DNA of 64,000 nt from Leucoraja ocellata (taxonomy: Eukaryota), in NCBI GenBank assembly GCA_036785375.1, contig JAWMAR010000084.1, forward strand, positions 3,162,001 to 3,226,000, given 5' to 3'. A program made the position numbers and the translations under genes. The notes under the pieces were generated by a model. It saw only the letters and a list, made by a program, of their open reading frames with translations, ran no database searches and was not told the origin of the DNA. Shown here in pieces: positions 7,681 to 48,136 of the stretch. Position 1 is the stretch's first letter. Every line of letters starts with the position of its first letter.

Positions 7681-7793
7681 TACGTCAGTAGTGCAACAGC
7701 GGCAGCAGCTGGAGCCAGGCTCTCCAGCTGCAGCATAAAGACGAGACCTCAGGTAAGTGCCTTTTTTGTTACAGAGTCGCTCTAGAGAGAATA

Positions 7794-9005
7794 ATGGCCT
7801 CTCGCAAGCGACCAGCCAGGAGGACTGCCTGCCCAACTCCACCCGAGGACGGGTCCATAGCGGGACGGCAGCCTCTCGCAGCGGAGGAGCCTTTTCAACG
7901 CTCCCGCTCACCCGACACCGAGCCACCCCCAGTGCTGCAGATTTCAACGCCCCGCACAGGGAGGAAGGCGACACATAAAACCGACCGGCCGGTGTCCTCC
8001 GATGAATCGGAGGAACGGGAACACTCTCCCCCACCGAAAAGGGGAGACGCTCGGATCAGCTGCATGAGGCAGCTCCTCGAGCGCATGATAAACGAGGAGA
8101 TGCGGCATCTCCCAGGAGGACGGGCTTTGGCCTCCTCCTCTCCACACCCTTCTGTACCCTCTATGTTCGAGGGCAGTAAGGGAGGCCAGGACTGGGCTGG
8201 CCTATCCCAAGGGCAGGCGGAGGATACCGTCAGCATGCCGGGCGTGCCGGAAGAAGAGCTACTGGGTGTAGTGGGCCGATATGCGGCGCCCCCAACAACT
8301 GGGATGGTGTTGCCACCCAGAATGGCGGCCACTATAAACAGGCTGTCCAACAACCCGCTGCAGGACAAGGCTGTCCAGCAGGCCCTTGACAATTACATCG
8401 CGCCAGAAAATTGCGAGGCGCTGAGGGTCAAGACGGTCAATGGGCAGATCTGGAACCAGCTGGGGCAGCAAATCAGGGCTCAGGAAGTCAAAATGCAGCG
8501 AGTCCTGAAGCTCCACTCAGCAGCCGTCACCGCCTTTGCTCGGTCCGTTGGGGATGAAGACCTGACCATACCCCAGCAGGATGCCCTCGCACTGATGTGC
8601 AGCACCACGTATGAGCTAAATAACCTACGGCGGGACAACATCAGGCCTGCCCTCAACCCAACATATGCCGGCCTCTGTAAAGCTCCAGCGCCCGAACGAC
8701 AGGCGCTGCTATTTGGTGCGGATCTGGCCAAAAGGCTGAAGGAGTTGGAAGAGGCGGCAAAACCAGTAGGCCTCATGAGGGCAGGGCCAGGACCGAGCAG
8801 GGTGAAGACACCCAGTTGGCCGCACGCCCCGGCAGCCACCAGCAGATACCGAGCTGGTGAAAGCCTGGTGACCGCCTCCCACTACCCCCAGAGCTCTTTT
8901 TTAGAGCGGGGCCCAGGGCGGAGCCGTGGGAAGATGCGCCGCCCCACCGCAGCACCAACACGGACAACCTTGGGCCAGACCCACCGAAAACGACCCCACA
9001 AGTGA
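7794..9005 (+). CDS. DIRS1 ORF1, gag-like protein (403 aa)
   Basis: Intact ORF in the ORF1 position. PENCEALRVKTVNGQIW...ELNNLRRDNIRPALNPTYAGLC...LLFGADL followed by a basic low-complexity tail, as expected for DIRS1 ORF1. Confidence 0.85.
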   Translation: MASRKRPARRTACPTPPEDGSIAGRQPLAAEEPFQRSRSPDTEPPPVLQISTPRTGRKATHKTDRPVSSDESEEREHSPPPKRGDARISCMRQLLERMINEEMRHLPGGRALASSSPHPSVPSMFEGSKGGQDWAGLSQGQAEDTVSMPGVPEEELLGVVGRYAAPPTTGMVLPPRMAATINRLSNNPLQDKAVQQALDNYIAPENCEALRVKTVNGQIWNQLGQQIRAQEVKMQRVLKLHSAAVTAFARSVGDEDLTIPQQDALALMCSTTYELNNLRRDNIRPALNPTYAGLCKAPAPERQALLFGADLAKRLKELEEAAKPVGLMRAGPGPSRVKTPSWPHAPAATSRYRAGESLVTASHYPQSSFLERGPGRSRGKMRRPTAAPTRTTLGQTHRKRPHK

Positions 9006-9007
9006 AC

Positions 9008-10942
9008 ATGGAGGTAGGTGGGTCTGGTTCCTGTCAACATACACAGACAAAGGGTGTAGTATTAACAGGGGGACGTTTGAGGTTCTTCAAGCATGTTTGG
9101 TGCTCCCTTACTAACAATAAGTTTATACTCAACAGTATTAGTGGATACAAAATTGAGTTCAAACCAGGCGTAGAACCGCCAGTTCAGCACATGCCCCAAA
9201 GGGTGTTCCTTCCCTCGGCAGTTGAGAAGGTAGAAGGACAAGCTGAACTTGATCGGCTCGTGGCTAAAGGCATCATAGAAATGACCACACACGAGCCGCA
9301 AGAATTTGTATCAAATATTTTTCTCAAAACCAAAAAAGATGGTGGATGTCGCATTATTATTGATCTGACGTCACTTAATCAGTCTGTTGAGTATCAACAT
9401 TTCAAAATGGAGACATTTGTCACTGCCAGACAACTGATCTCCAAGGGATACTACATGGCAAGCATAGATATCAAAGATGCTTACTATTTGGTACCCATTC
9501 ATAAAGATTACTTTAAATATCTGAAATTTATCTGGAGGGGCCAGCTATGGCAGTACCGAGCTTTGCCCAATGGTTTAACGACAGCTCCCAGACTATTTAC
9601 GAAAATTCTTAAAGTGGCCATGAAGAAATTGAGAGAACTAAAACATTTAGTTGTGGCCTATCTGGACGATGTTCTCATATTAGGAAGAACACGGGAACAA
9701 GCTGTCGCAGGAGTGTTAGCCACTAAACAACTCCTTGAAACTTTGGGTTTTATCCTTCACCCAGATAAATCAATATTGGAGCCTACTACTAACATGGATT
9801 ACCTAGGCTTCACTATTGACACGATTCACATGACTGTCACTCTGCCCAGAGACAAAACAGTTTCACTTATTGAAGCTTGTAGCTATTTAATTGCTACACC
9901 ACAACCTAGAATACGGCATGTAGCCAGAGTTATTGGCTCTATAGTAGCAGCATTTCCGGCTGCCCAACATGGGCCCTTGCATTATCAAAATCTACAAAGA
10001 GCAAGGACTCATGCATTACGCCTTCATAGGGGGCATTATGATCGCAAAATGGATTTACCCGCTGAAGCCAAATCAGAACTTCAGTGGTGGGTTGACAATA
10101 TTTGGCACAGTCACAGTCCTATCGCCGTAACCAATCCTAACATAACCATTGCAACGGATGCCAGTGCTTTAGGCTGGGGAGCTACTAACTCCATAGACAG
10201 CACAGGTGGCAGATGGACTAACTCAGAGGCATCGCTACTACAATCACTGGGCATTAACTTTTTGGAAATGCTCGCCGCCTTTTATGGGCTAAAAGCATAT
10301 GCATCTGATATGCGGCACGTGCATGTTAGAATTATGATCGACAACACTACGGCAGTATCTTATATCCAGCACATGGGTGGCATTAAATCAGTATCATGCG
10401 ACAAATTAACTGCTATAATCTGGCAATGGTGTGTCGAGAGACATATTTGGCTATCAGCTGCCTATTTACCAGGCAAGCTAAATTTAGTGGCGGACACCAG
10501 GTCACGAAAATTCAACGACAACATCGAATGGATGTTGGACCCAAAATTATTTGCTAAAATTGTCAAGCAATATGGTACGCCAGATATAGATTTGTTTGCG
10601 TCTAGGTTAAATCACCAACTACCCATGTATGTGGCTTGGGAACCAGACCCAGAGGCAGCAGCGGTAGATGCCTTCACGCTGGATTGGGGAAATTTCTTTT
10701 TCTATGCTTTCCCTCCCTTCTGCCTCATCAGTCGGGTACTCCAGAAAATTCAGGCAGACTCAGCCTCTGGCATTCTGGTCGTGCCCGACTGGCCTACCCA
10801 ACCATGGTTCCCAATGTTCCACGACATGGTGGTAGAGACACCAATGGTCCTTCAACACCACCCCCAATTATTGACTCACCCGGTAACTGGCATTAGCCAT
10901 CCATGCCACCAAAAATTGAAACTCCTGGTTTCCAGATTTTGA
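9008..10942 (+). CDS. DIRS1 ORF2: reverse transcriptase, RNase H and Dam-like methyltransferase domain
   Basis: RT: IDIKDAY, LPNGL, YLDD (9659-9670), YLG. RNase H: TDASALGWG, INFLEM, IDNTTAV, ADTRSR. MT: DLFAS (10589-10603), YAFPPF (10703-10720), VVPDWPTQPWF. First ATG at 9008, 2 nt after the gag stop; the ORF track opens at GTG 9002. Confidence 0.95.
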   Translation: MEVGGSGSCQHTQTKGVVLTGGRLRFFKHVWCSLTNNKFILNSISGYKIEFKPGVEPPVQHMPQRVFLPSAVEKVEGQAELDRLVAKGIIEMTTHEPQEFVSNIFLKTKKDGGCRIIIDLTSLNQSVEYQHFKMETFVTARQLISKGYYMASIDIKDAYYLVPIHKDYFKYLKFIWRGQLWQYRALPNGLTTAPRLFTKILKVAMKKLRELKHLVVAYLDDVLILGRTREQAVAGVLATKQLLETLGFILHPDKSILEPTTNMDYLGFTIDTIHMTVTLPRDKTVSLIEACSYLIATPQPRIRHVARVIGSIVAAFPAAQHGPLHYQNLQRARTHALRLHRGHYDRKMDLPAEAKSELQWWVDNIWHSHSPIAVTNPNITIATDASALGWGATNSIDSTGGRWTNSEASLLQSLGINFLEMLAAFYGLKAYASDMRHVHVRIMIDNTTAVSYIQHMGGIKSVSCDKLTAIIWQWCVERHIWLSAAYLPGKLNLVADTRSRKFNDNIEWMLDPKLFAKIVKQYGTPDIDLFASRLNHQLPMYVAWEPDPEAAAVDAFTLDWGNFFFYAFPPFCLISRVLQKIQADSASGILVVPDWPTQPWFPMFHDMVVETPMVLQHHPQLLTHPVTGISHPCHQKLKLLVSRF

Positions 10943-11913
10943 ACAGGCCTTACCGGGGATTGGGGTTATCAGACAGAACAATCACCACCATGTCGGCATC
11001 CCTGCGAGTTTCCACCAAGAAACAGTACCTGACCTTCATCAGGAAATGGGAACAGTACTGTCTGGACGCAGGGACATCCTACAAGACGGCTTCGATCTCG
11101 GATGTGCTGGAGTTCCTGGCCCACCTGCACCATGATCTCAAGATGAGCTACAGTGCCATCAATACGGCTCGGAGCGCACTGTCCGCATACCTCATGCCGA
11201 TAGAACAGCATAGTGTGGGATCCCACCCTCTGGTCATCAGACTCCTTAAGGGGATCTTTAATACCAAACCCCCTACACCTAGATACACTCACATGTGGGA
11301 TGTGAGTGTAGTTCTGACACACCTTCGAGGTTGGCCTCCGGTGGGATCCCTGAGCCTGGAACAGTCCACTTATAAGACCCTCATGCTCATGGCGCTTGTC
11401 TCAGCTCAAAGGGTTCAGTCGCTCCATCAGCTAAATCTGAACTACATGGTGACCACCCCAGATACCATTACTTTCACCATGCCGGGGTTGGTAAAACAAA
11501 GTAGACCAGGTACATCAAACTCCCCGTTGATCTTCCGGGCTTACCCTCCAGAACCTAGGCTGTGTGTGGTGACCCACCTTCATCATTATCTAGACACAAC
11601 CCAAACGCTTAGAGGGAGAGAGAAAGCCTTATGGGTTAGCCACAGAAAGCCTTTTGGACGGGTTACCAGCCAAACATTATCCAGATGGTTGAAACAGGTC
11701 CTCAGCATGGCAGGGATTAACACAAATGTTTTTAAATCCCATTCAACCAGGGCAGCGTCCACCTCAGCGGCGGATAGGATGCAGGTTCCCCTAGACCACA
11801 TCCTCAGAGCAGCGGGATGGTCAAGGGAATCGACATTCCAACGATTTTACAGGAAACCGCTGATGGAACAGGACGTCTTTGCGGATACCATTTTAGAAAC
11901 CGCAAAGTTATGA
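10903..11913 (+). CDS. DIRS1 ORF3: tyrosine recombinase (the real start may be ATG 10990)
   Basis: Core-binding region (STKKQY...YSAINTARSALS) and catalytic set R (AQRVQSL), K (VKQSRP), HxxR (HSTRAAS), AGW and Y (FQRFYRK). No stops. Confidence 0.93.
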   Translation: MPPKIETPGFQILNRPYRGLGLSDRTITTMSASLRVSTKKQYLTFIRKWEQYCLDAGTSYKTASISDVLEFLAHLHHDLKMSYSAINTARSALSAYLMPIEQHSVGSHPLVIRLLKGIFNTKPPTPRYTHMWDVSVVLTHLRGWPPVGSLSLEQSTYKTLMLMALVSAQRVQSLHQLNLNYMVTTPDTITFTMPGLVKQSRPGTSNSPLIFRAYPPEPRLCVVTHLHHYLDTTQTLRGREKALWVSHRKPFGRVTSQTLSRWLKQVLSMAGINTNVFKSHSTRAASTSAADRMQVPLDHILRAAGWSRESTFQRFYRKPLMEQDVFADTILETAKL

Positions 11914-16818: not shown

Positions 16819-19800
16819 TTAAACAAAATCACCGTAGCAGACAGGAGGTTTGACAACCCGACCCGAGCGTGTGCGTATAGCACCATCACCCTCCCCACCA
16901 GATAGAAGAGGAGGCGGAGCAGTAGCAGCCGGGAAGGAGAAAGTCGGCGGAGACCCAACCGGGAATGCAGAAGGTGACCCAGCCGGCACAGGTGATCCAG
17001 GAGGAGGAGACGGGGGAGGAGAAGGAGAACGCGCAGGGGAGGAGAACATCTGCCCGAACCCAGGAAGTGCAGAGGGAGGAGAACGCGGCAAGTGAACTAC
17101 CCGGGGCATGCAGGGAGCTGTGGGGTAATTAGTAATGACAGGCTCGAAACACAACGGAGGAGCGTAGGGATCCGCAGGAGGAGGCTGAGGCTCATTAACG
17201 GCCAACAGGTGCTGGCGGCTCCGGCGGTAAACAGTTCCATCAAAGTCCACCAGGTAAGATCTCGGGGAATCGTCCACACCAACAACGGTTGCGATTCGGG
17301 AGAATCCGGTGGCTGTATGCATGTGGACGACCTGGCCAGGCAGTAGTGGTGAGAGCGGGCGGCAGGACTTGTCATGAGAGCGGCGCTGTACCTCATGCTT
17401 GTGAGCAATCTGTTGCTGGACGGCAGCAGGCTGGAGGACCTTGGGCACCAGGGATTGTTGGGCGATCGGCATCGGTGGGCGAACACACGGGACATTAGAC
17501 GCTGGGCAGGGGATCGCATGGTAGGGTCGCGTGAGATGTTGCGAAGGTTTAGTAGACCCAGGTAGAAGTCACCATTGGAGAGACGAGACTGCTCGAGCAA
17601 ATTCTTGGCACTGCGGACAGCTCGCTCGGCCAGGCCATTGCTCTGCGGGTATTCGGGGCTGCTGGTATAGTGAGTGAAGCTCCATTTCACAGCGAAAGCC
17701 TGGAATTCTGCACTGGTGAACTGACGGCCGTTGTCGGCCTGCAAGCGGACCGGGGACCCAAAGGTAGCAAAGTGTCTGCGCAGCTTACTGATAACCATTT
17801 CAGAGGTGATAGCAGGGAGAAGATCCACTTCGAACCAGTTGGAGTATGAATCAACCAACACCAGGTAGTGATTGCCTTGCCATTCGAATATGTCAGCAGC
17901 CAGCGAGGTCCAGGGCATGGCAGGCGCAGGCTGCTGCAGAAGTGGCTGGCGCTGCTGATGTGGGGCAAGAGTGTTGCAATCAGGACAGGAGGCTACTCGG
18001 GCTTTAATGTAATTGGCCATGCCGGGCCAATAGTATTGTTCTTGGGCATGTGAGACGGTGGCATCGGCACCGGGATGCCCCATGTGAGCAGCGTTGTAGT
18101 ACAAGTCGTATAGGGAGGCAGGGACGACCACCTTGTGACCCTTGATGATGATGCCGTCCCGGAGCACAAGCTCATCGCGGACCAGAAAGAAAGGGTGGGG
18201 CGCCCACAGGCAGTGAGATGCGTCTGCTGGGCCACCCCTGCTGGATGACAGCTGCGAGCTGTTGCAGGTCGGGGTTGTTGGCGGTGTGCTCAACCAGGCA
18301 CTGCAGCTGCTTGTAACAAAGTTGACATTTAGTACCTGCAGATCCTCCTGCTTGTAGGGGTGCCTGTCACCTGAGGACCGGGGGGCCCGGGACAGCGCGT
18401 CGGCCACATGCATCTATGCCCCTCTTTTACACGATCAGAAAGTTGAACCGCTGGAGCTGTAACATCATGCGCTGGAGTCTAGCTGGAGCGATGTGGATAA
18501 GCTTATTGAGGATGGTCACCAAGGGTTGATGATCCGTCTCGACGGTGAACCTGGTACCGAAAATTACGTCCTTGAACTTGGAGCAGGCGAATACAACCGC
18601 AAGAAGCTCCTTCTCGATTTGTGCATAGCACTGCTCAGTATCTGTCATGGTACGCAAGGCATAAGAAATGGGCTGCAGCGAGCCGTCATCATGGAGTTGC
18701 AGGCAGGCAGCACCGAGTCCGAAGCGGGAAGCATCACACGTAACTACAATTGGACTTTGCAGATCGAAAAACTTGAGAGTTGGTGTGCTAATCAGCTTTG
18801 TTTTGAGAAGGTTGAAAGCCTGCTGGTGTTGGGGAAACCAGGACCAGGCAATGTCTTTTTTTGTCAGTTGCCTCAGGGGTGCGCTCAACTCGCTGAGGTC
18901 GGGGATGAACTTTCCCAAATAGTTGACCATGCCCAGGAAACGCTGCAGGCTGGTCACGTCGGTCGGGGCAGGCAGCTCGGAGATAGCGTTGGTCTTCTGC
19001 GGATCAGGTTTCAGCCCATGGGCTGTGAAGATGTGGCCAACATAGGGTACTTTATCTTTCCCATAAACCAGGATGTCATCCACGATAATGGCACACGGCA
19101 GGCCAGCAAACAGTTTCTCCATGGAGCGTTGAAACACTTCACTAGCAGAGTTGATGCCGAACGGCAACCGCAAAAATTTGAATCTTCCGAAGGGAGTGCC
19201 AAAAGTGGTTAAGTCTGAGGAGCGTTTGTCTGGAGGTATTTGCCAGAACGAGCTCCTGGCATCAAGGACAGAGAACACCGTGGCCTGACCGACCTGGGCA
19301 GCAACATCTTCTACAGTTCCCATGGGGTGATGAGGACGCCTTATTGCCAGATTTAAGTCTTTGGGGTTGATGCACACCCATATCTCGCTCTTACCCTTCT
19401 TCATGGTGGCGACCATGGTGGAGACCCACTCGGTGGGTTCGCTGACAGCTTCAAGCACTCCCATGTCAACCATGTTCTTCAGCATGGCTTCGACCTTGCC
19501 CTTCATGGCAAACGACACCCTGTGTGGAGCACGGACCACTGGTACAACCAACGGGTCAGTTGCGATCTTGTATACAAGGGGCAGCTTACCCAGAGCATCA
19601 TCGAATAGGTCAGGGTACACGGAGAGTGGATTCAGCATCACCCGCACTTCGTGGACAGTACGGTCAAAGGACACCAGCCCGAGATCCTGACATGCCTGAT
19701 TGCTCAACAGAGTCACACAGTCGCAGTCAAGAATGAAAAACGACAGGTCACGCGAAGATTTCTTCAGGACACAGTGGAAGGTGGCCCTCCCCACAGGTTT

Positions 19801-20922
19801 TAGCTCCTCTCCCCCATAAGCATGCAATATGGAGCGATCAGCAGTTAACAGCTCATTATTTTCTTATCTTCCTGAACAGGGATGTAGACATAACATTCAC
19901 TTTCGCCCCTGTGTCCAGCTTAGCAGTGAAGGACTTGTTGTTGACAAGCACAGAAGGATTGGGGAGGTGAGATTGATTATGAAGGAGAGAATAAACACTG
20001 GCATCTCCCATGGAAATACTGGGGTCAGAGTCGAGGGCAGTGTCGACAGAAGACTGGGAACCAAATTCATTATCAACTTGTTGAAAGTTGTTTAAAACTT
20101 GTCTGGGAGCTGGAGGAACATTCCCACGGGAGCGACAGGCAGCTGAGCAATGGTTCATCTTCTTACAGAAATTACAAGCTTTACCAAATGCTGGGCACTG
20201 CGACTGCATAGAGTGGACATAATTGCAGTTGGGGCACTTCTTGACAAGCGGGACCCGAGCGGCATAAGTCAGCCGCGGTGCAGGGCGAACGTTGTCTTGC
20301 TTGCAAAGGGGCACAGCAACACCAGTCAGATTAATAGCCCGATTGTCAGATCCCTCCGCCCATGTAACGGGGCAACCACCTCAGCTATTCAGCATGCATG
20401 CATAGCCTCAGTCAGGGAGAGATCCGGTCTCCGCAGCAGCTCTGCTCATAGCTTCTGATCTAGCATGCCGGTGACCAAAATATCTCTGGTGAGCTGATCA
20501 CGCATGTTCTCGAAAAGGCATTGCTGAGCAAGGTAGCGCAGGTCAGCGTTAAAACATTCAACAGGTTCATCAGGTTGCTGTTTCCTTGTAAAGAATCTAG
20601 CCCGCTCCAATATACGGTTGGAGGACAAGTCACAAATTTCCGCAAACTTGCGTAAGAGACATACCGGGTCATTGGCAAATTCCGCCGGCTCGACGGCCTG
20701 GTTGTTGTCATCCAGGACCGCTGGATTGTAAGTGAAAGCCTGAGCACGCTTCATAGCATCGGGACCGGCAAGGTTCAGCAGGAGTGAGGCTTTGACCGCA
20801 TCAGGGTCATTTTGGTGCACGATGTTGATGAAATGGTTGTAGTCCATCATGAAAGTAGCCCATCGCTCCGCAATGTCAGCGTCAAAGACAAGGGGAGAGG
20901 GCTTGCGGCACGAGAATGCCAT
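16819..20922 (-). pseudogene. Gypsy gag-pol, frameshifted
   Basis: Gag MAFSCRKPSPL (ATG 20922) with tandem Zn knuckles CPNCNYVH...C and CNFCKKMNH...C. Protease LDTGA. RT LDARSSFWQI, LPFG, IVDDIL with an apparent in-frame deletion after YGKDK. RNase H CDASRFGLGA. Integrase HMGH...CPDC, ADIF, DNGRQF, GLAERAV. Confidence 0.92.
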
Positions 20923-21179
20923 GGTAAATAGGGAACTAAACACTAGTAAAACTAGGAGCAAATAAAACCCGATAAACAGGAGGCGTGCGTTTAACTTACT
21001 GACACCATATAAAGGAGTCAAGTCTGACACACTGTAACTTTACTGAGTCTTTAATAAAGGCACATGTCAAACACGTCCCAGTACTGACTGCATCTAGTCT
21101 TCAGGCGTACTGGAACCAAGGGAGGAGCAAGGGGAAGATATCACAGTTATACTGAAATGACTGGGCGTGGTTAGTGGTA

Positions 21180-22865
21180 CAGGTGCACAACCTTTTATCC
21201 GAAGTTCCAACTAACGAAAACCTCCGAATAGCGACATTTTTTCAGTCCTTGAAGAAAGGTCCTTGAAAACGTTCACCGAGGGCGGCCCGCAGAGGTGACA
21301 GCGGAACCTCCGGTCGGTCCTCGAAGAAAGGGGAACTAAATCCCCATTCATAAAAGAGAAGGTGAGGGTATATTGCGCGGGAGGGTTAATAATTGACAAT
21401 CTGCTGCTGCCTGCCCGCTGAGTTAAAAAGTTCCCACGGTAGACTCACGATACACAGTGTATCGTGAGTCTTGCATGAGAACTTTTTAACTCAGCGGGCA
21501 GGCAGCAGGAAATTGTCGCTCCCTTAAGTTTCACCCCACCTACACCCCTCTGCTTCCAGGCCATGTGTGTGACCCCTTCCCTCCCCTCTCCAGCTCCCCG
21601 CCCATTGCACCGGCGCGGGGGTTTTGCACTGTCTTCAAGTCGGAGCTAGTGCCAATCACCAGAGACGTCAGGACCAACGGGACACCGACCCCCAGGCCCA
21701 CTGCAAGCACGGAGATCCCAGAGACCCACAGCCAGCAGCAGCCCAGCCCCGTTCCAATTCCAGAGGAACACGCTCCCCGTAGGGACCGAAGCTGATGGTG
21801 TGCAAGGTGCGTCTTGGTCTTGAGGTTGCGGATGAGGGGGCGCAGCTCGGGCTGTGACGTCTCCGGCCACCCCCTGTACAGGAGCTGAGACTGGGAACTG
21901 TGGGGTTGTTTGCAGTTGCAGAGGGTGGGGGCAAGGGCGGTAAAGTTCCCAGTCTCAGCTCCATTCCAGGGGGGTGACCGGAGACGTCAGGACCAATGGG
22001 ACACCAACTGCAAGCACGGAGATCCCAGAGACTCACAGCCAGCAACAACTCTAGCCCAGCCCCGCTCCAACTCCAGAGGAACCCGGGTTGCGGATGAGGG
22101 GGCACAGCTCGGGCTGTGGGCGAACTGCCACTTGTCGCTGTAGCGGCCCATCGGGGAGCGGGTTCTTGTTGGTCCTGACGTCTCCGGCCACCACCCTGGA
22201 CAGGAGCTGAGAGACGTCAGGACCACCAGAAGCCGCTCCCCGATGCACCGCTACAGCGACAAGTGGCAGTTCGCCCACAGCCCGAGCTGCGCCCCCTCAT
22301 CGGGACACCGACCCCCAGGCCCACTGCAAGCACAGAGATCCCAGAGACTCACAGCCAGCAACAACTCTAGCCCAGCCCCGCTCCAACTCCAGAGGAACCC
22401 GGGTTGCGGATGAGGGGGCGCAGCTCGGGCTGTGGGCGAACTGCCACTTGTCGCCATAGCGGCCCATCGGGGAGCGGATTCCTCTGGAGTTGGAGGGACA
22501 GGGAGACACAGCAGCTTTTGAGAATGGTGGGCAATCACTTCCAAAGTTCTGCCCACACAGCCAGTACACCTCTCCTACACTTGTCTCCCGCACTAAGATT
22601 ATCTCGCAGAGAATGATCCCAGCCTAACCCTCCCTATTCTCTCCTATTCTGCAAGAAAAAACTACATTGAAGACTCAAACTCGCGATCGAGTAACTGCCG
22701 GGATCGAGGCGCAAACTCGCGACCTTGCGGATACGAGCCGAGCAATCTACCACTGCGCCATCCGTTAAAATCTACGCTAAAAATCTTCCGTTCCGAAAGC
22801 CGAAAAATTCTGAATTACGAAAAGTGTCTGGTCCCAAGGCTTTCGGATAAAAGGTTGTGCACCTG
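21180..22865. mobile_element. Non-autonomous Tc1/mariner (pogo/Tigger-like) DNA transposon
   Basis: Perfect 24-bp TIR CAGGTGCACAACCTTTTATCCGAA and TA duplication (21178-21179, 22866-22867). The right end TCTGGTCCCAAGGCTTTCGGATAA resembles Tigger4/MER46 ends from recall. No transposase ORF. Confidence 0.9.
22695..22763 (-). other. tRNA-like (SINE-head-type) remnant inside the Tigger-like element
   Basis: GGATGGCGCAGTGGTAGATTGCTCGGCTCGTATCCGCAAGGTCGCGAGTTTGCGCCTCG: A-box TGGCGCAGTGG, CT-CGT-AT loop, degenerate B-box. Stems are imperfect. Confidence 0.5.
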
Positions 22866-23811
22866 TATTGAGGTAGCTACATTATAGGTTGCATGCATAA
22901 ACCATCTACAGGGACCTTCCAGTCTGAAGAAGGGTCCTGACCCGAAACATCACCCAACCTTTTTCTCCAGAGATGCTGCCTGACCCGCTGAGTTACTCCA
23001 GAACTTTGTGTGCATCTTTGGTATATGTCAGCATCTGAAATTTGTTTCTGCACATTAACGTTTGCAATGTTGGTTTCTCCTCTGGGTTTTAATTAAATTC
23101 TGAAAATTAAAATAATATTTATTTGCCTCTTAGTCTGTTTTACCCTTTTATTGATTGACTGTGAATTGAGTGCAATATTCTAAATTAAATTCCTTTGTTG
23201 AAATTGAGGAGATTATATGCATGGTAACTAATTGTCTGCTAGAATGTTTGGTTAGCAACTGGATGGTGAGCCAGCATATAACCTTTTATGACATGCCATG
23301 AGGAAGACTGGTAGGGGCATTACTGAATCATCCACAGACAAGGAAATACATTTCCTTCTCTATTGTGGAGTTTGCAAAGAAAACTGAGTAAGGTTTATAC
23401 AAACGTGAGGTTCTGGTAGTCATGTATGGATCAGGATGAAGTTTGACATAAAAAGCTGGTGTAACTCAGTGGGACAGGCAGCATCTCTGGAGAAAAGGAA
23501 TGGGTGAAGCTTTGGGTTAAGACCCTTCCCAACCAACATCTGCAGTTCCTTTCTACACATTCAGGACAAATTTTCTTCAGTGGGAGTGTCTGGTTGCGAA
23601 TTGGATGTTTAGGATTATGTTGGAATTGTGGCAGGGGGTGAGTGTGCGAGTTGGGAGTGGTTGATAGTTGAGTTGGACTGTGTAATTGACATTTGATCTG
23701 TTGTGGTATTGATAAGGGGGATGGGACTCTATGATCCACTGAGTTACTCCAGCCCTTTTTGTCTTTTTTTCTTTTTTTTGTAAATTAGTAACTGCAGTTC
23801 TTGTTTTCTAG

Positions 23812-24106
23812 GCAGCATAGTAGCGCAGTGATAGGGTTGCTGCCATACAGTGCCTGAGACCTGTGTTCTATCCTGACAACGGGTGCTGTCCGTATGGAGT
23901 CTGTACATTCTCCTCGTGATCACGTGGGTTTTCTCCAGGTGCTCCGGTTTCCTCCCACATCCCAAAGACATACAGGTTTGTAGGTTAATTGGCTTCGGTA
24001 AAAATGATAAATTGTCCCTAGTGTGTGGAATAGTGCGAGTGTATGGGGGTCGCTGGTCAGCGCAATATCGGTGGGCCGAAGGGTGTGCTTCCGCACGGTA
24101 TCTCTA
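23812..24106 (+). mobile_element. tRNA-derived V-SINE-type SINE
   Basis: GGCAGCATAGTAGCGCAGTG head, GGAGTCTGTACATTCTC...GGTTTCCTCCCACATCCCAAAGAC core, GGTATCTCTAAA tail. Other copies at about 25990-26160 (-), 45524-45812, 54862-55147, 59973-60125 and 60946-61230. Confidence 0.75.
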
Positions 24107-26805
24107 AAATGAAACAAATCTACATGGTTTTGCAATCCTATTTGCTGCTATTTATGTTGGTGTTGACTAAGTTGCAGAAGTACCATCACTACAAGAGCTA
24201 AAACCAGCCTGAAAGCCACCCAGATGTAATCTGGATGTGAATTTTTGCATTCTCATCATCGCATAAGTAAAGAATTGCTAATGAGACAAGAGACTGCCGA
24301 TGGCTCTGATTATTTATTGAATTTCAGGCACTGATATTTAATTAGTGCTCCTGTTTCCATTGGTTAATTTTTGACCTCCCATTCACTTATTTATTTCCTA
24401 TTCCCTTTTATTTATTGGCTCACAATATTTATTTAATTAACAGGACCCTAGGGATGTCTGATGGTTCACTTGTTTATTTTTTCAATATCATGATTTAATT
24501 ACGGTTTTACCTTGCTTGACAATGAATTAAGAGATTCCTGTAACAGTAAAACTTGAGGGATCTTTTTTTCACACTTGCTCCTCCATTTAAAATTTTAGAG
24601 TGTAACATGTCTTCTGACTCCAGTATGTGCGAACCCATGGGGAAATCCACTGGTACATATATCTTTAATGGCGAACAAATCTGATCCTATTACCAGCCTC
24701 TAATGTCCACTTCTTGCTACTTAATGTTGCTGTCTGTCATTCAGCTCTCTCTTTATCCATACTGCTATTTATTTTGTACCAACAGTTCTGAGTTACTTTT
24801 TTCAATCAATATCTGGTGTGATGCCTTAATAAATGTTCTTGGGGATCTATGGATTTCATTCACTCAGCCCATTTGTGTGTTGTGGTCAATAAAATTCTGT
24901 CCTGTCTCAGACATGGCCTCCCTATGTTTGATGATAATTCCTGGTTAGTTCATTCATTTTGCTTCAACCTGATTAATTAAGCAAATTAGAAACATTCGAT
25001 AAAATCAAGGGGTTTACCATCAGTTTGGATGTGCTTTGTAGAGGGAAAAATTGAAACAAATAGACTGAAAATAACTGCCAAGAAAACAGTGTGGAAAATG
25101 TAAATTTTCTGGGGCCTCAATGGTTGTGGGAATGTTCCAGTTCAAACTGTGGAGGTAGAGTGAGTGGGTGTTGTCTGGCATAAGAATCGAGGTATCTTCC
25201 CATATATGCTGGCACACTAATCAGACTTGGGTTTAGATTTTCAAAGGGATTGGAGGCACTGTTAGTATGTAATCTTGGCATGGCTAAACACAGTGAAAGA
25301 CTCAGCTTCTTTCTCCTCCCCCCCCACTCCCGAGATCCAATGTTTTCTCAAAGTTTTCCATTTTTAAAACTGCCAATTTGGCTGTCGTACAATCTTTTAA
25401 AAAATATTATTGAGATAATGCCAGCTGATTGATAATTATTAGGTCTCTTTCCTAAAGACTTTGAACAAAGATATAATATTTGCCTTTCACCAGTCTTCTG
25501 GCACACTGTATATTGGTTTCAAATGTTGAGGTTTTAATTTCATATCTATTTCCTATCTTCTTTTGTACTTTTAAGTTTAACACTATCTGATCCTGCCCTT
25601 GGTTCAAGAATTACATCAGCTAATTATTTAAAAAAAATCTTTCCAAGAAGTATTATTTGCTATCTCCCTTCTCTTCAACTTGTTCAGTTTGCTGTTTTAT
25701 TTAAGATATTGTCCTTGTTCTCCTCATTCAAATGCAATATTTGCTGAATTCTTGCATCCACCATTCTGTTTAAATGGCTGTACTATAGTTGGCCTGACTT
25801 GCGTAGGAAGACCTGTGAATCGGACTCTTGGAACATCAAGCTGTAGTCATTTGAAAATTAATATGTGCATTTGATTCCACCCAGTTTTATTGGTGGTGTT
25901 ACAGTAAATTCAAAGATATTTTTGTGGGATGTGATCATTAGCCTCTTCTTTGTCCCCATCCAAAAACTTTGTTTTTCCACTCACCTGGTAGTTTCCAATT
26001 AACCTACAACCTGCATGTGTTTACAATGTGGGATGAAACCGGAACAGCCAGAGAAAACCCATGAAGTCACATGGAGAACATACAAACTCGTTACAGACAG
26101 CACCCGTAGTCAGGATAGAACCTAGGTCTCTGGCGCTGTGCGCAAGCACACTGCACCATTCTGCTACTCCTTAATGTGCCATCTCAAGCCCTGCAAGTTA
26201 TGTTGAGATAAAATAAATCATTTTAAACTCCAAGCGTCAATTACCTGAAACGTAAACCTGTTTCCACAGATGCTGCCTGATCTGCTTAGTATTCCCAGCA
26301 CCTTTTGTTGTTATTTTATATTTCTAGCATCTGCAGTAAATTATTTTGCGGATCACCAGCTCAACGTGAATGAGGCTTGGGATTGAAATTGTTTTTTTCT
26401 CTTCATTCATGGCAAATCAACCATCTTAAAGTTAAATGTATTCTTGCCTTTGAAGGAAAGTACATGGGGTGTAATACTTTGAAAGATGACATGGAGCAAA
26501 GTTTCACTTGTTGAAATTTAACCAGACTCGTACATCACTTCCCAACTCTTCTCTCCAGATTTTCTTGGATATTTGGCTATTGATTAACCATTGTTCATCA
26601 AGGTGTTTTATTTACAGGGCAGCACAGTGGTGCAGCTGGTAGAGCTGCTGCCTCACTGTGCCAGAGACCTGTATCTCAGCCAACAGACAGCTGGGCAACA
26701 CCCCAAAAATACCATCAGGCAGAATTTTTTTTGTCTGAGTTGTGAAATAAAGAAAATTAAAAATGTTATTTGTAATAAGATCAAACAAACTGAAAATGGC
26801 GATAA

Positions 26806-27231
26806 AGGGGCTGTCCCACTTGGATGACCTAATTGGCGAGTTTAGAAGAGTTTGGACAACGAATAGTGGAGAGTGAAGACGATTTCCTTCGACCTCCCTT
26901 CGACTATGATGAAGACTATGACTACCTTCGACTACCCTTGATTACCTGCGATTAACATGCCGACCTACTATGACCTACTACGACTAAACCTACGAGTAAA
27001 AAAAGTATAGACTTTTTCCATGGAGACCTTTTTTTACTCGCGGGCATTTTTTAACATATTGAAAAAAATGCTGCGACCTAGCTGAGGCCTCAAGAACGCG
27101 GAGACCACTCTTGAGCATGAAGGAGAGTTACGAAGACCTCCTACGACCTCGTGTCGACCATGCTGCGAGTACGATTCGAGGGCAAACTCGGCAGAACTCG
27201 CGGATTAGGTTGCCCAAGTGGGACAGGCCCT
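26806..27231. mobile_element. PIF/Harbinger-type MITE
   Basis: TIRs AGGGGCTGTCCCACTTGG and CCAAGTGGGACAGGCCCT. Flanks TAA and TTA. Interior rich in CGACYT/CGACTA repeats. Confidence 0.8.
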
Positions 27232-28622
27232 TTAGGCTGTTGTTGAGGTATGGCTTTGTGAGACATTCTTGTGTGTAGTGTCAGTGATGGTTGGTGTGAA
27301 ATCTGACCTGGTTTACTGTGAGTGACTAAAAGCATGGAGCAGCATGTATGTCTACAGTAGCAATCTAAGACCTGCACTTACGAATAAACTGCAACTTGTT
27401 CACACCAAAGAGCCAAAAACATATTCAGCTTCATCTGAAGAGCACCCAGAACCAGGGCACCCAATAAAGGCAAGTAACCGACTAGGTCGAAAAATCATCA
27501 ACCAACAGTCTGTAAACCAAGAAGTGTAAATTGGAGATAGGATTGAATATATCTTGGGTACAAAAAAGCAAAGTTGAAAGAGAATGAAAGAAGGCATTGA
27601 GAGAGAGAGAGAAAAAGCAAGGAAAGTAAAAATCTAATGAGTGTCCCTCTCCCATTGGTACGGAACATTCGCATTTTTCAGCTTGAAATTGTGCAATATG
27701 GTGCATACTGTAGCGAGTCTTTTAACTTACACTTGAATGCAAAATATATGCTTTAAATTGGATTGGAGCGTTTTTGAAAGGGGTGAGGCTGTGCGATCAC
27801 TGATCACTGGCCTTGGGGGTACCCGGTGAGGGAGTGGAGCAACCGAGTGGGGAGAGGGTGTGGAAGAAGGGTGTCCCCCCTCCCAGGGTAGGAACCTTTT
27901 GAAATTTGATGTATTAAAATCATGTTTTAGTGCACTGTAGAAGTATGATTTCAATGTTTTTTGTATGAAGTATTTTTAAGAGTTCACTTTTTAAGGGGTA
28001 ACTTTATCCACACAAAGGGTGATGGGTGTATGGAACAAGCTGCCAGAGGAGGTAGTTGAGGCAGGGACCATCCCAACATTTAAGAAAAAGTTAGACTGAT
28101 ACATGGATAGGACAGGTTTGGAGGTATGGACCAAAAGCAGGTGGCGTAGCTGGGACATGTTGGCAGGTGTGGGAAAGTTGCACCGAAGGGCCTGTTTTCA
28201 CACTGTATCACTCTATGACTACATTATACCTCCACCATGCATGAATACTTCAGAATCAAGTGATCGAGTTTTATTGCCATATACTCACATAGAAACATAA
28301 AAAATAGGTGCAGGAATAGGCCATTGGCCCTGCGAGCCAGCACTGTCATTCAATATGATCATGGCTATTCATCTAAATTCAGTACCTCTTTCCAGTTTTC
28401 TCCCCATATACCTTGATGTCGTTATCCCCAAGAACTAAATGTAACTCTCTCTTGAAAACATCCTGTGAATTGGCCTGCACTGCCTTCTGTGGCAGAGAAT
28501 TCCACAGATTCACAACTCTCTGCGTGAAGAAAGTCTGTTCTCATCTCAGTCCTAACTGGCCTTTATTCTTAAACTGTGAACCATGGTTCTGAACTCCCCC
28601 AACATCGTGAACATTTTTCCTG

Positions 28623-29451
28623 TAGTTACAGTAAGTGAAAATCTAGCAGGCAAGCAGGATGCTTTCTCCAACCACCCCCATTTGAAATTCACTATCTTCC
28701 ACCGTATCTACCCAGTGCTTGGTACTTACTTCCAGCAGCCACTGATTGTCCTCCAGAATGCACCGAGCCGCAGCCTGATCCATGCCGGTCACCTGGGCGA
28801 ATTCGGCACAGAGACTCTCACGGCAGTGGCGCAATGCTTCTACGCCTCCGCCTGCCCGGGACTCTTGCACTGAGGCTGCTCCATGGCCGGAGCTGCAGTG
28901 AGCGACTCGCCAGCCTGGCAAACACTCGCCAGCCCCACTCCCCGTCCGCATCTGTCCCCGCCGCTGCTTCTGCTTCCAACACCCGCTCCCCATGCAGTTG
29001 ATATGAGTTTTGAAATTTTCGTTGATCACAGAATTTCTCACAACAGAGCGAAATAAATTTGTGATCAGCGTGAGAATTTTGTGAAATGCGTGATTCTCAT
29101 GGTCAATGCATGGGAGTTCCCTCTCCCTCTCCCTCCCCCTCCCCCTCCCCCTCCCCCTCCCCCTCCCCCTCCCCCTCCCCCTCCCCCTCCCCCTCCCCCT
29201 TCTCTCTCTTCCCTCTTTCTCCCAGTCCCGGCTCCCCGCATCTGTTCCCGCCGCTGGTTCTGCTCCCATCCCTGCCGCAGCTCCGGCTCTCCAACACCCG
29301 TGGACCATGCAGTTTATCCGAGTTTTGAAATTTTCGTTGAATTCAAAATTTCTCACCACTGAGCGTGAGAAATGTCTGATCAGCGTGAGGGCGTGAGAGT
29401 TTGCTTGAGGGCGTGAGTCTCGCGCTGAAAGCGTGAGAGTTGGCAGCCCTG
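28623..29451 (-). mobile_element. One-ended hAT-like non-autonomous element with host-gene cargo
   Basis: End CAGGGCTGCCAACTCTCACGC at 29451, multiple CTCACGC subterminal repeats, an internally duplicated unit of about 120 bp (about 28975-29095 and 29290-29390) and a (CCCCCT)n tract. The other TIR is not found; the sequence abuts a CR1 fragment at about 28622. Confidence 0.6.
28730..28884 (-). pseudogene. TDP2: TDP2-like exon 1 fragment (UBA-like domain), disabled
   Basis: GCCATGG start context. RESLCAEFAQVTGMDQAAARCILEDNQWLLE is followed immediately by GTAAGT (28729-28724). It resembles TDP2 RRLLCVEFASVASCDAAVAQCFLAENDWEME (recalled). The ATG frame has a TAG at codon 15, and ATG to donor is 155 nt (frameshift). 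Confidence 0.7.
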
Positions 29452-29890
29452 ATAAGATCACGAGGGGAATAGATAGGCAGATGCACAGAGTCCTTTACCC
29501 AGAGTAGGAGAATCAAGAACCATAAGACATCGGTTTAAGGGGTGAGATATCATACGAACCTGAGGGGCAACTTTTTCACAGCAATGTTCATAGGTATATG
29601 GAATGAGCTGCCAGAGGGGGGCAGTCACAGGTGCCATATAAGCTGCCAGAGCAGGTACTATAACAGCATTTACAAGACGATTGGACAGGTACATGGATAC
29701 GGACCAATTACGGGCAGGTGGGACTAGGGTAGATGGTGCATCTTGGTCAGCTGGAGCCAGTTAGGCCAAAGGGCAAAGGCCTTTTTGCATGCTGTATGAC
29801 TTATGACTTTAAGTAAAGCAACTGCATGCTGTTTTAAATGGGATGATTGCCAGTTTTTTTTGGAAGAGCAAGACTTTTACAGTATGAGAG

Positions 29891-31370
29891 CAGGGCCGGC
29901 GTTAAGCCGATTTGACCGATTGCTCCCAATTGGGCCCCGCGCCTAAGCGGGGCCCCGCACTAATGTTCAGTATTTCGTACGGAAATACGAATTCTCTTTG
30001 TTAAATAAAGATTTTTTTTAATTCGCCATCCGGATTTTTTTTAAACGAACATGTATAACAACCGCTGCACGGCCATCATACACAAACGATTTGTTAACTA
30101 GTGCTGTTAGCACTTCTTAACGGTAAGTAGTTAACACCTTGTTATGCAATGTCATGAATCCGCATCTATCCGCATTCCTCAGTAAATGTTATAGTGTTTT
30201 GAACAAGTAGTAATGACACTGTGTTCCTTTGAATAAAATTCACGCGGCGTCATTAATACTTGTTTAAAACACAATTACATTTACTGAGGAATGTAGATCG
30301 ATGACACATTGAGAATTTCATTTAACTCACCATCATGAGTGAGGGCCCCGGACCGCGAGAAGGGGCTTCTTCCTGGTGTGCAGGTTAGTCATTCACCTAC
30401 CGACCCACGTTGTCTCTCTGTCTTTTGCTCACTGCCTCCCTCCCGCTTTCTCTTGCACTCTCTCTCCCGCTCCCTATATTGTCTCTCTCTAGCTCTCCCA
30501 CTCCCTCTCTATCACCCTCTCCCCTCAGCATTCCCGGAATCATTGATGTTTAGCAGTAGACAAAAATGCTGGAGAAACTCAGCTGGTGAGGCATTCGCCT
30601 GGCCCGCTGAGTTCCTCCAGCACTCTGTGTTTTTTGTTTGGCTCTGAAGTTGAAGGTGGCTCAGCGGGATGGGCAGCGGCTCTGGGGAGAGGGTTGTGTT
30701 TCTGGTCGAGACCCTTCTTCAGACAATCACAAGTACTCTCACCGACGCGAGTTCAGTTCGGTCTGAAGAAGGGTCTTCTCTCCAGAGTCGCTGCGCTGCC
30801 TGTCTGCTGAGTTACTCCAGCTTTATGTCTATCTTCAATTTCAGAGAATTACAATTTCTCACGGGGGGGCTTATAACGTCTCTAAACCCCTCTGGGACCC
30901 TCTGAACACCTCTAAACCCCCTCTAGCCCCCCCCCCCCCTATTTCCCTCTATTCCCCTCTAAACAATTGTAAACACACCTGAACCCATCTGAAGCCCTCT
31001 AAACATCTCTAAGCCGTTTAAACCCCCTAAGGCCAGCCATGCNNNNNNNNNNNNNNNNNNNNNNNNNNNNNNNNNNNNNNNNNNNNNNNNNNNNNNNNNN
31101 NNNNNNNNNNNNNNNNNNNNNNNNNNNNNNNNNNNNNNNNNNNNNNNNNNNNNNNNNNNNNNNNNNNNNNNNNNNNGCTCATTTTATTAGATGTGTGACA
31201 CTTTCATATAGTTTTTCAAAATTTTAGTATATCAAGCATTTAATGTTTTTTTTGGTTAAAGACGAGCATACTACACGAAATATAAACATACATAAATTTT
31301 TACTTTTCTAGAGTAGGGGCCCCGCCATCAGTTTTCTAATTGGGCCCCGCAATTCCTAGCACCGGCCCTG
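29891..31370. mobile_element. Non-autonomous hAT transposon spanning an assembly gap
   Basis: TIRs CAGGGCCGG and CCGGCCCTG. 8-bp TSD TATGAGAG/CATGAGAG. GGGCCCC subterminal motifs at both ends. Carries Penelope-end pieces (about 30555-30837) and TCTAAACCCC-like repeats. Confidence 0.85.
31043..31176. other. Assembly gap
   Basis: Run of N. Confidence 1.
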
Positions 31371-31968: not shown

Positions 31969-32863
31969 ACTAATCTTAATACATTCATCCTCCTCACCCC
32001 ACACATACATTCTCATCAACTGCACCACAGATCCTACCACTAAACTACATTTGTTGCCAATTAACCCACCAACATACGCCCAGAGCACCAGGAGTAATCC
32101 GCATTGTCACTGTGAGAGTGTATATACGCCACATAGACAGCACAGGAAGTCAAGATGGTATTGAGGTGCCCAGAGCTGTGAGGCTACTAGCTGGCCCACT
32201 GTGCCATCCCTGATAAGATGTTGATGACCTTCAAATGGAAACTAAAGGAGGCAGCACCAGATAACAAATAAAAGAAAGGAAAAAAATGAAATTCTTCATT
32301 GCTTCAAATTTGTGTTGTAGTTTTAAGCCAACACACATTTCAGACATCCCTACTATTTTAATAGTAAGATTAAATGAGAACTTACCAGTTTGAAGTTTTA
32401 TCTTTATTTTATGAGGAGATACGTTGAGGGACTACGTGAAGAAGGCCCGTCCAGGCACACGTGCGTCAATCTTCAAAGCAGCGGTGTGAAATCACAGATG
32501 ATATGTACCGAAGGATAATAGTAAGCTACGTGATACAAACTTAACTACCTCCTCTGGCCTTAACTTTATCTTTATTAGGGTGGGTGCGGAGGGCACGTAG
32601 TCCCTCAACGTAACTCCTCATAAAATAAACATTAAACTTCAAACTGGTAAGTTCTCATTTAATCTTACTATTTTACTTCGGAGTCACGTGAGTGACTACG
32701 TAAAGATTTTAAAGCTTCTGTGATTTCAGGCCGTAGATTCAATTCCGGCGTATCACTGCATTTTGATTGACTCTATGAGCGAAAGACAGTCAATAACATG
32801 CAACCATAACATTTGTTTAATCCGTTAATGGTTTATTTTATGATAAACATTATGTGTCCCATT

Positions 32864-33869
32864 TTAATCACTGGGAACATTTAATACTGAATCCAAAACC
32901 GTACCACCAAATACACCAGGGTCTGCAATCTCATTGTGGTAATACTTGTAAAACATCCTTTCATTTGCCCATCCTGTGGTTGCGAGGATATGGCCTATTG
33001 GAACATCCAAATCCTTGGCCGATGATGTTGCCGTCGCCCTGGTGGAATGAGATTTAAATTTGTCAGTATCAATTCCTGAATCCAATAGCACCTTCTTCAG
33101 CCATCTTGAAATTGTTTGTGTTGACACTTTTTTGTGTGTTTTTTTATGGCTGATAAGTAATGCGTATTCTACACCTCTAAGGTGCTTGGTGGTCTCAATG
33201 TAGTGTTTCAAATATGTAACCACACATAGTCTTTGGTCTGTAGGATATGCTGAAAAAAGCAATTTACACCCCGAGACTCCTGGTCTGCTCTGTTTTAGCA
33301 AGTCATAGACATATAATGTAATTTCCTCTGTTGTCATTCCCATTCTGTCTACCCGTAATTTGTGTAATGTTTGTACTCTTTGGGCTGAGACTAAAGCCAT
33401 TAACATGATTACTTTCATAGTGATTTTGTCTAAAGACAAATTTGAGATTGGGACTCCAATCCCTAAGTAGCGTGAGTACATCCCTCACATTCCAGATTTC
33501 CGTATATCTCGGTCTGGGAGGTTTAGCATTAAAGATGCCCTTCATGTATTTACAAATCAAGGGGTGTGATCCTCGAACCTGTTGTTCAGATGCTCTCGAT
33601 AAATATGCAGAGAGGGCACTGGCACTCCTTGCAGTGTTGATTGCACTATAACTTAAATTAGCATCAAAATGTCATGTTGACAAGAATTCTACAACATCTG
33701 AAGTGTTTGCAGTGTGGTAAGAAATGTTTTGTGTTGCACAAAACTGCTCCCATTTCTTAATGTAAGAAATGTACTGCTTCTGGGTACTATCCCTCCAGGA
33801 TCCTGCAATTACATCCATAGTGCGATCTGATAGTCTTCTTCCGACATATGGCCTTTTTAGAATCTGCAA
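32864..33869 (-). pseudogene. DIRS1 tyrosine recombinase, frameshifted
   Basis: STQKQYISYIKKWEQFC, KGIFNAKPPRPRY, LMALVSAQRVQTLH, LKQSRPG, TISRWLKKVL, FKSHSTRA and GWANERMFYKYY spread over several frames. Confidence 0.9.
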
Positions 33870-35135: not shown

Positions 35136-35291
35136 GTGCAATTTTTGAGGAGACTGCCAGAAAGGATGACAAAATGTTTCGATTAGCCGTGGCCGAAATG
35201 AACATGAATGAAGAAATATTACAAAATGAAAAGATAACATTCTCGGTCAGATTTATTGATTCCAACAATCCATTCCAGGCTGTTCAAGAAG
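35136..35291 (+). CDS. GRID2-like: Internal coding exon (exon 2, amino-terminal domain) of a delta-type ionotropic glutamate receptor, GRID1/GRID2 family, closer to GRID2
   Basis: Acceptor TTTTCCTTCTTCAG and donor G|GTAAGA. 156 bp, phase 1-1. Encodes (G)[51 protein letters not shown](A). Length and motif match GRID exon 2 as I recall it; orthology is not settled. Confidence 0.93.
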
Positions 35292-47999: not shown

Positions 48000-48136
48000 N
48001 NNNNNNNNNNNNNNNNNNNNNNNNNNNNNNNNNNNNNNNNNNNNNNNNNNNNNNNNNNNNNNNNNNNNNNNNNNNNNNNNNNNNNNNNNNNNNNNNNNNN
48101 NNNNNNNNNNNNNNNNNNNNNNNNNNNNNNNNNNNN
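48000..48136. other. Assembly gap inside an unclassified repeat (about 47340-48525)
   Basis: Run of N. The flanks share a repeated block CACGATAG.GC.ACAA....GGCCCACCTTAC (about 47458-47490 and 48156-48188). Confidence 0.9.

Follow-up and report, generated by a model that had tools for sequence, protein, structure and literature searches.

A high-copy mobile element of skates carries the first exon and splice donor of TDP2

Has a mobile element in skates taken up the first exon of a host DNA-repair gene, and by what route has that exon been multiplied? The question arises from a segment on the minus strand of a 64,000-nucleotide stretch of Leucoraja ocellata DNA (the window, throughout this text), where a sequence-only reading had described a hAT-like terminus followed inward by subterminal repeats, a GC-rich leader, GCCATGG, a UBA-like peptide and a GTAAGT donor, and had proposed a transposon capture of the first exon of TDP2. 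Every one of these features is present on that strand in the place given to it. Here we describe a real, high-copy mobile element of the skate lineage that carries TDP2 exon 1 together with its splice donor, and for which DNA transposition is the likely mechanism of spread.

Origin of the captured exon

The coding part of the cargo (28730-28884, minus strand) extends from a conserved ATG at 28884, set in GCCATGG (28887-28881), to the end of the exon, and comprises the front part of a UBA domain, as judged from Pfam, PDB and tblastn comparisons. The peptide encoded at 28831-28730 matches the Pfam family UBA_4 (E 1.8e-06, which passes the family cutoff), and its top match in the PDB is the UBA domain of human TDP2 (E 2.7e-05), with p47/NSFL1C far weaker (E 0.59); these were the sole proteins matched at E values up to 10, and neither DCN1 nor UBXN appeared. 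The best named match in the protein databases is again TDP2, from Leucoraja erinacea (E 3e-13), and the identity first proposed for the peptide is upheld by these searches. Over 34 residues the peptide is identical to the TDP2 of Leucoraja at 32 positions (94%), of Amblyraja at 31 and of Rhinoraja at 28, and to that of ten other rays and sharks at 19-22; the ten residues from the ATG onward are those of L. erinacea TDP2. When 18 rows were placed in a midpoint-rooted tree, models without the UBA exon being excluded, five element copies and the three skate TDP2 sequences formed one side of a 100/99 branch (the copies were not resolved as a single clade). The residue identities and this branch thus point firmly to skate TDP2 as the gene that donated the exon. 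With full-length TDP2 as the query, a tblastn search of the 64-kb window returned no further exon (next match E 0.48), in agreement with the earlier statement that none lies there.

The homology to TDP2 protein stops exactly at GTAAGT (28729-28724), a donor in phase 0. Three chondrichthyan gene models break exactly at the same boundary, WLLE|RALNSYF (in the Rhincodon X3 and Callorhinchus models, whose starts differ, the join is at RALNSYF, and the Heptranchias model parts from the others directly past WLLE), and both lines of evidence agree with the first-intron position proposed earlier. The donor and the roughly 107 bp that go with it (28623-28729, minus strand) correspond to the "about 100 bp" of intron-like DNA noticed before. 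Three copies known from protein databases (P0004, P0006 and P0011) read past the donor into the same piece, which is probably the start of TDP2 intron 1, and which gives way at 28622 to the 3' end of a LINE.

Ahead of the exon stands a captured TDP2 leader (28885-28986, minus strand; GC 0.70, CpG o/e 0.80), delimited by tblastn of P0007, P0013 and P0023, by comparison of N-termini and by a table of indels. It is homologous to an N-terminal extension of the TDP2 of A. radiata and R. longicauda, annotated as coding there and not in L. erinacea. A GC-rich leader is therefore present as had been described, but its label as a 5' UTR is uncertain, the sequence being coding in two of the three skate TDP2 models. 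The match to the A. radiata TDP2-like model starts at 28986, runs inward and leaves out the repeats, a weak sign that the capture junction may lie near 28990.

The reading frame of this copy is damaged. A TAG is present at 28842-28840, together with a 1-nt loss at 28841/28842; one extra base is found at this site in 18, 14 and 17 contigs of three runs (about 6-9% of the depth there), and the protein copies in databases read through it in frame, which suggests that the stop and the frameshift, both present as previously listed, are probably one lesion rather than two, the stop being a by-product of the deletion. A second 1-nt loss lies in the leader at 28936 (extra base in 15, 16 and 13 contigs), and some 25 nt are missing near 28975, among them an upstream ATG.

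The skate genes themselves show some further features. Their exon 1 has a long branch in the tree, and an N-terminal basic KR-x-R/K motif occurs in none of the three skate TDP2 sequences (P0005, P0007, P0013), whereas all ten other chondrichthyan models with exon 1 possess it (P0014-P0022, P0108). In A. radiata a further gene, TDP2-like (P0023, XP_032895808; 80% identity in the catalytic part), is located on a contig equal in length to that of TDP2 and shares a 19-residue stretch of exon 1 exactly with the TDP2 of that species; gene conversion is a possible cause, and P0023 is a possible alternative donor of the captured piece.

Layout and left end of the element

The element begins at a TIR-like left terminus, CAGGGCTGCCAAC (29439-29451, minus strand), which occurs in exact form once in the 64-kb window (29451-29439) and is a family boundary according to its sequence, its unrelated flanks at other occurrences and contig depth. 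Inward of it, and on the same strand, follow a first block of subterminal CTCACGC repeats that closes with AACTGCATGG (unit 1, 29305-29438) and a first, truncated copy of the TDP2-like 5' piece (29219-29299, with an upstream ATG at 29269), which aligns to the leader of unit 2 and to residues 1-39 of P0006 and may derive from either the gene or the element. A GA-rich microsatellite (29117-29218) then separates this part from a second subterminal block that is devoid of the first TIR bases (unit 2, 28990-29116), itself followed by the leader and exon. The two left-end units are arranged head-to-tail and are 81% alike in a self-comparison of the window, and the repeat TCTCACGC starts on the minus strand at 29438, 29398, 29370 and 29075. 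Joints in public contigs (29075>29411 and 29099>29431) connect the TIR side directly to the unit 2 block, indicating that single-unit copies exist. At the inner side, the intron piece abuts a sense, 5'-truncated LINE 3' end (28287-28622, minus strand), which is supported by joint and depth data, is 73% identical to positions 62126-62449 of the window and which we take, from its C-terminal translation, to be CR1-like. On the outer side lies an older host LINE fragment (29452-29890, plus strand), recognised by comparison within the window and broken at the terminus; an X1 contig matches 29494-29700 of this flank with 0 differences at a depth of 21.3.

The same 21-base end recurs in three other contigs (L001-L003), each time as a single end and beside an unrelated flank. 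L001 and L002, which are fish-like elements, also have in common with the window the short subterminal repeats that adjoin the TIR (75-76% identity over 89-92 bp of unit 1), and do not continue into the TDP2 leader. The occurrence in L003 (1936-1956), a contig whose ORFs presumably resemble WNK-type kinase exons, suggests related ends in another vertebrate. Within the window, 13-mer matches to the terminus with two mismatches are at the level of chance (2 found, 1.57 expected), so the status of the terminus rests on contig depth and on its recurrence at unrelated flanks. No relevant paper was returned for the exact 13-mer in the transposable-element literature, and the 21-mer gave 0 matches in viral sequences and 0 in prokaryote genomes.

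Whether this end belongs to a hAT element is a separate matter. It starts with CAGGG at 29451, which fits the hAT terminal motif YARNG (PMC3014272), and similar CAGGG ends have been described (PMC4298943). A search of the 64-kb window for a right terminus gave four minus-strand matches at three mismatches, none followed by the 8-mer of the flank, and the corresponding search for an 8-bp target-site duplication (TSD) showed that this 8-mer recurs exactly once in 20000-28620 (at 26782), away from any TIR-like sequence. This site and a TIR-like one with three mismatches at 27465 were both rejected as right ends, having the wrong neighbours and standing at chance level. The continuation of the interrupted host LINE was likewise not found in the 64 kb, including the far side of the element behind the LINE tail. 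Profile scans of 269 window ORFs (all 244 plus-strand ORFs of at least 50 aa and 25 chosen minus-strand ones) found no hAT transposase, and none is evident in the ORF list of L003. The terminus called hAT-like by the sequence-only reading thus has the end motif and the subterminal repeats, but not, within the window, paired TIRs or a TSD, and this copy is a putative rather than an established hAT member.

The window contains several other mobile sequences. A retroelement with long ORFs encoding reverse transcriptase and tyrosine recombinase, presumably DIRS-like, occupies 7692-11913 on the plus strand, with a second recombinase fragment at 32867-33484 on the minus strand, and the pol region of an LTR retrotransposon (protease, reverse transcriptase, RNase H and integrase, in several frames) lies at 17100-20380, also on the minus strand. 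A palindromic element is present at 30163-30303, and elements with long inverted ends at 26803-27234 and 32360-32672; an Rfam search of 27500-30500 gave three sub-threshold miRNA matches, all on the palindrome and outside the element described here. Runs of N occupy 31043-31176 and 48000-48136.

Copy number and mode of spread

Of 22 public sequencing runs listed, 20 contain part of the stretch and none contains half of it, with no RNA run listed as containing it; data from four of the 22 (X1, X4, X10 and X22) were aligned to 28350-29700 at 80% likeness. In the three DNA runs, from three organisms, the mean summed depth over five exon and leader bins was 284k (X1), 123k (X4) and 153k (X10), which is 6,100-13,300 times that of the unique X1 flank contig (21.3, a single-copy yardstick that X1 alone provided). 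Summed contig depth is not a copy number and conveys an order of magnitude; even a 31-fold inflation at every base, through short overlapping contigs, would leave a lower bound of 196-431 copies. Each of the three genomes is thus likely to hold hundreds to thousands of copies, plausibly thousands. The variant sites listed in 28687-28916 are covered by 62-121 distinct contigs, against a ceiling of 128, and at most of these sites nearly all of the depth carries a letter other than that of the window, as expected if the window holds an aged copy of the family.

The depth of the terminus bin is 1.23, 1.51 and 1.08 times that of the exon (X1, X4 and X10, respectively), and the depth at 29461, just outside, falls to 1.2-2.6% of that at 29422, so the copies share the end and not the flank. 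The link from terminus to donor is made through overlapping pieces, none of the listed contig pieces spanning both, and the terminus depth may include MITEs that do not carry the exon. Four further, more diverged copies are found in protein databases (P0004, P0006, P0011 and P0012) and group with skate TDP2; in P0006 the subterminal block precedes the exon in the same reading frame, and P0011 and P0012 could be the parent loci of other skates. Dispersal to different flanks is indicated indirectly by the depth, the boundary and these four copies; transposable-element sequence beside the cargo was observed on the left side, and the parent is known from proteins only. An exon-donor 20-mer gave 0 matches in metagenomes, and relatives of P0004 were confirmed in 0 of 406 prokaryote and 0 of 31 viral contig stretches. 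The contig depth refutes a single-copy explanation, and the boundary that the cargo shares with the terminus ties it to the TIR family. The proposal that the family spreads a first-exon/donor segment is likewise sustained, the exon and the intron piece standing at thousands-fold depth in three organisms.

The identity of TDP2, the exon boundary, the high depth, the sharp terminus and the absence of other exons constitute the observed part of this picture. We consider it quite probable that the element represents a non-autonomous, hAT-like Pack-TIR family, in which TDP2 exon 1 and its donor were captured at the DNA level and spread by DNA transposition. Capture would have taken place in the skate lineage, where template switching during repair or replication may have placed a copy of some 360 bp from the TDP2 5' end (28986-28624) on the inner side of the subterminal repeats. 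The LINE piece would have arrived with intron 1 or inserted early, as its presence across the family suggests, and cut-and-paste mobilisation, with transposase supplied in trans, would then have amplified the unit. The window copy would have come to lie within an older LINE, and would have lost its right end while acquiring frameshifts and a second left-end unit.

Retroposition had been set aside at first on the argument that the start of the intron is kept. It is indeed kept, but the argument is weaker than it appeared, since the fusion of the intron piece with a CR1-like tail in sense orientation is apparently a feature of the whole family: depth through the junction at 28623 is 0.97-2.0 times that of the exon, and a multi-copy deletion variant with the joint 28614>28658 reaches depths of 477 and 255. 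This junction opens a reading in which a SINE-like retroposon, transcribed from a CpG-rich head through exon 1 into the tail, was copied by LINE reverse transcriptase with the hAT-like end as a passenger. The fused LINE 3' end is complete and in sense orientation, and stringent recognition of such tails is established (PMC3747384); the right TIR and TSD are absent from the window; depth just 5' of the tail is 1.5-2.3 times that of the terminus bin, a mild 3' bias; and the retroposons SVA_F1 and pt_SVA_D6 carry first exons (PMC6139936). Under reverse transcription, however, depth should drop steeply toward the 5' side and the ends there should be ragged, and the terminus depth is instead 1.08-1.51 times that of the exon, with a sharp TIR edge; moreover, the donor is unspliced despite an acceptor-like CAG at 28622-28620, and the host LINE does not continue behind the tail. 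We therefore regard retroposition as unlikely, and the sharp TIR boundary is a better argument for DNA transposition than the kept intron.

One-ended or alternative-end transposition, in which a hAT-like element first inserted upstream of TDP2 and then moved host DNA, so that the N-terminal extension is partly element-derived, would account for the presence of this extension in two of three skate TDP2 sequences and in none of ten other chondrichthyan models with exon 1, for the start of the extension carried by unit 1, and for the absent right end in the window. Yet the A. radiata TDP2-like model no longer resembles the repeats once past 28986 on the upstream side, L001 and L002 stop short of the TDP2 leader, and a high copy number of hAT elements normally requires two functional ends, all of which make this route distinctly improbable. 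A real nested TDP2 gene or one ordinary segmental duplication, the lesions being sequencing errors in either case, to which the 94% identity over 34 residues and a 283-codon open frame through the element might seem to point, has a negligible probability in view of the thousands-fold depth, the three separate lesions and the lack of any other exon in the window. We do not regard this open frame as a gene, as it includes the microsatellite and the TIR and its database counterparts are element copies only.

Expression, precedents and consequences

The host gene context is given by a coding exon of GRID (delta-2-like; 35136-35291, plus strand), which was missed by Pfam and located by a motif scan and a PDB search (GluD2, E 1.3e-20; GluD1, E 3.7e-18), and which has AG/GT edges. 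The element lies 5.7 kb upstream of this exon and, as had been noted, antisense to it. The exon starts in a split codon and an upstream exon must therefore exist, and the element is likely to sit inside a GRID intron, although the preceding exon was not located in the window. The window copy, broken and antisense to GRID, is likely inert.

In a poly-A run of organism D (6% of it read), the depth of first mates over 28626-28947 is 7-21 on the plus and 8-19 on the minus strand with no drop at the donor, a signal that fits incidental transcription of many copies and from which the parent mRNA is inseparable. The CAG at the intron-LINE junction (28620-28622, minus strand) is a possible partner acceptor of the captured donor, with which it would delimit a 110-nt intron; a skip from the donor to this CAG occurs in none of the 15 contig joints listed out of 324, and use of the donor in general is documented neither among these nor among the 24 loose ends listed out of 2745. 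Searches for chimeric proteins gave 2 matches among 15 candidates of 82-2000 aa and 3 among 15 of 61-196 aa, all of them TDP2 or element copies, and a further search among 1.84 billion gave one representative, again TDP2 or an element copy; the sensitivity of all these searches is low, the last having missed full-length TDP2. For most of the copies a role as passive cargo is likely. A copy that is intact, intronic and sense-oriented would have the means to work as a movable first exon, rich in CpG and ending in a phase-0 donor. Like the N-terminal UBA domain of TDP2, in which R56 and F62 matter for function and whose human exon 1 encodes an NLS, the cargo has the front helices, but it contains no catalytic domain (PMC5137425). 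The residues aligning to R56 and F62 (in the RALNSYF stretch) would, by their spacing, fall in exon 2 and be absent from the cargo, which makes ubiquitin binding by the cargo alone unlikely.

Related cases are known in animals and plants. Tan et al. 2021 (PMC8277862) report 370 animal Pack-TIRs in 100 genomes, four of them multicopy in reference genomes, with 3-5 copies in examples of the latter and a count of 0 for elephant shark; "skate" and "TDP2" are absent from the 12 text supplementary files of that paper, which possibly do not include every table. As in Pack-hAT-N8_XT (CAPSL 5' UTR; PMC8277862), a genomic gene fragment from a 5' region resides in a TIR-type element with hAT-type ends, far from its parent; unlike the animal Pack-TIRs described there, the skate element carries a whole coding first exon along with its donor, does so in hundreds to thousands of copies, and was seen with its left TIR alone. 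The bat Helitron HelibatN3, which holds the promoter, six codons and splice donor of NUBPL and for which exon trapping, a process it exemplifies, was shown experimentally (PMC4778049), is similar in that the donor and the preceding 5' part of a housekeeping gene were amplified to high copy; it differs in being a rolling-circle element without TIRs and with proven trapping, whereas the skate cargo, of about 50-85 residues, is known from sequence alone. Maize Ds2 and Ds-l4 are likewise non-autonomous hAT elements with intron-containing filler, and compound forms in which one end is duplicated are also known, but they are single elements of a plant and the skate element is an amplified family; gene capture by maize hAT elements is called rare in the same source (PMC3260210). 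In SVA_F1 (MAST2) and pt_SVA_D6 (STK40), with 84 and 94 copies, a GC-rich host first exon was also amplified by a mobile element, but was acquired by splicing, with the donor consumed and no intron, and was spread by LINE-1 (PMC6139936). Literature searches on a skate TDP2 element, on hAT capture and on Rajiformes hAT elements returned no description of the family; Repbase and Dfam, both outside this search, may still hold a consensus.

For work on skate genomes, TDP2 exon 1 will be repeat-masked and will attract multi-mapping reads, effects that can distort gene models and expression counts as well as the design of guides or primers. A more far-reaching scenario, which we hold to be rather doubtful, is that a skate hAT family has made a mobile cassette, present at thousands of loci, out of the CpG-rich first exon of TDP2 with its start codons and phase-0 donor, so that sense copies would start transcripts or add a UBA fragment to host genes, and that the family may have fed back on the parent TDP2 (long branch, extension gained, KRxR lost). 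With many dated copies of a single exon, it becomes possible to test directly for transcripts arising from cassettes of this kind and for silencing of the parent by them. If the DNA-level reading is true, the family would be an unusually large vertebrate case of gene-fragment copying, comparable to the amplification of Pack-MULEs in plants and matching, by a cut-and-paste route, what HelibatN3 represents in bats.
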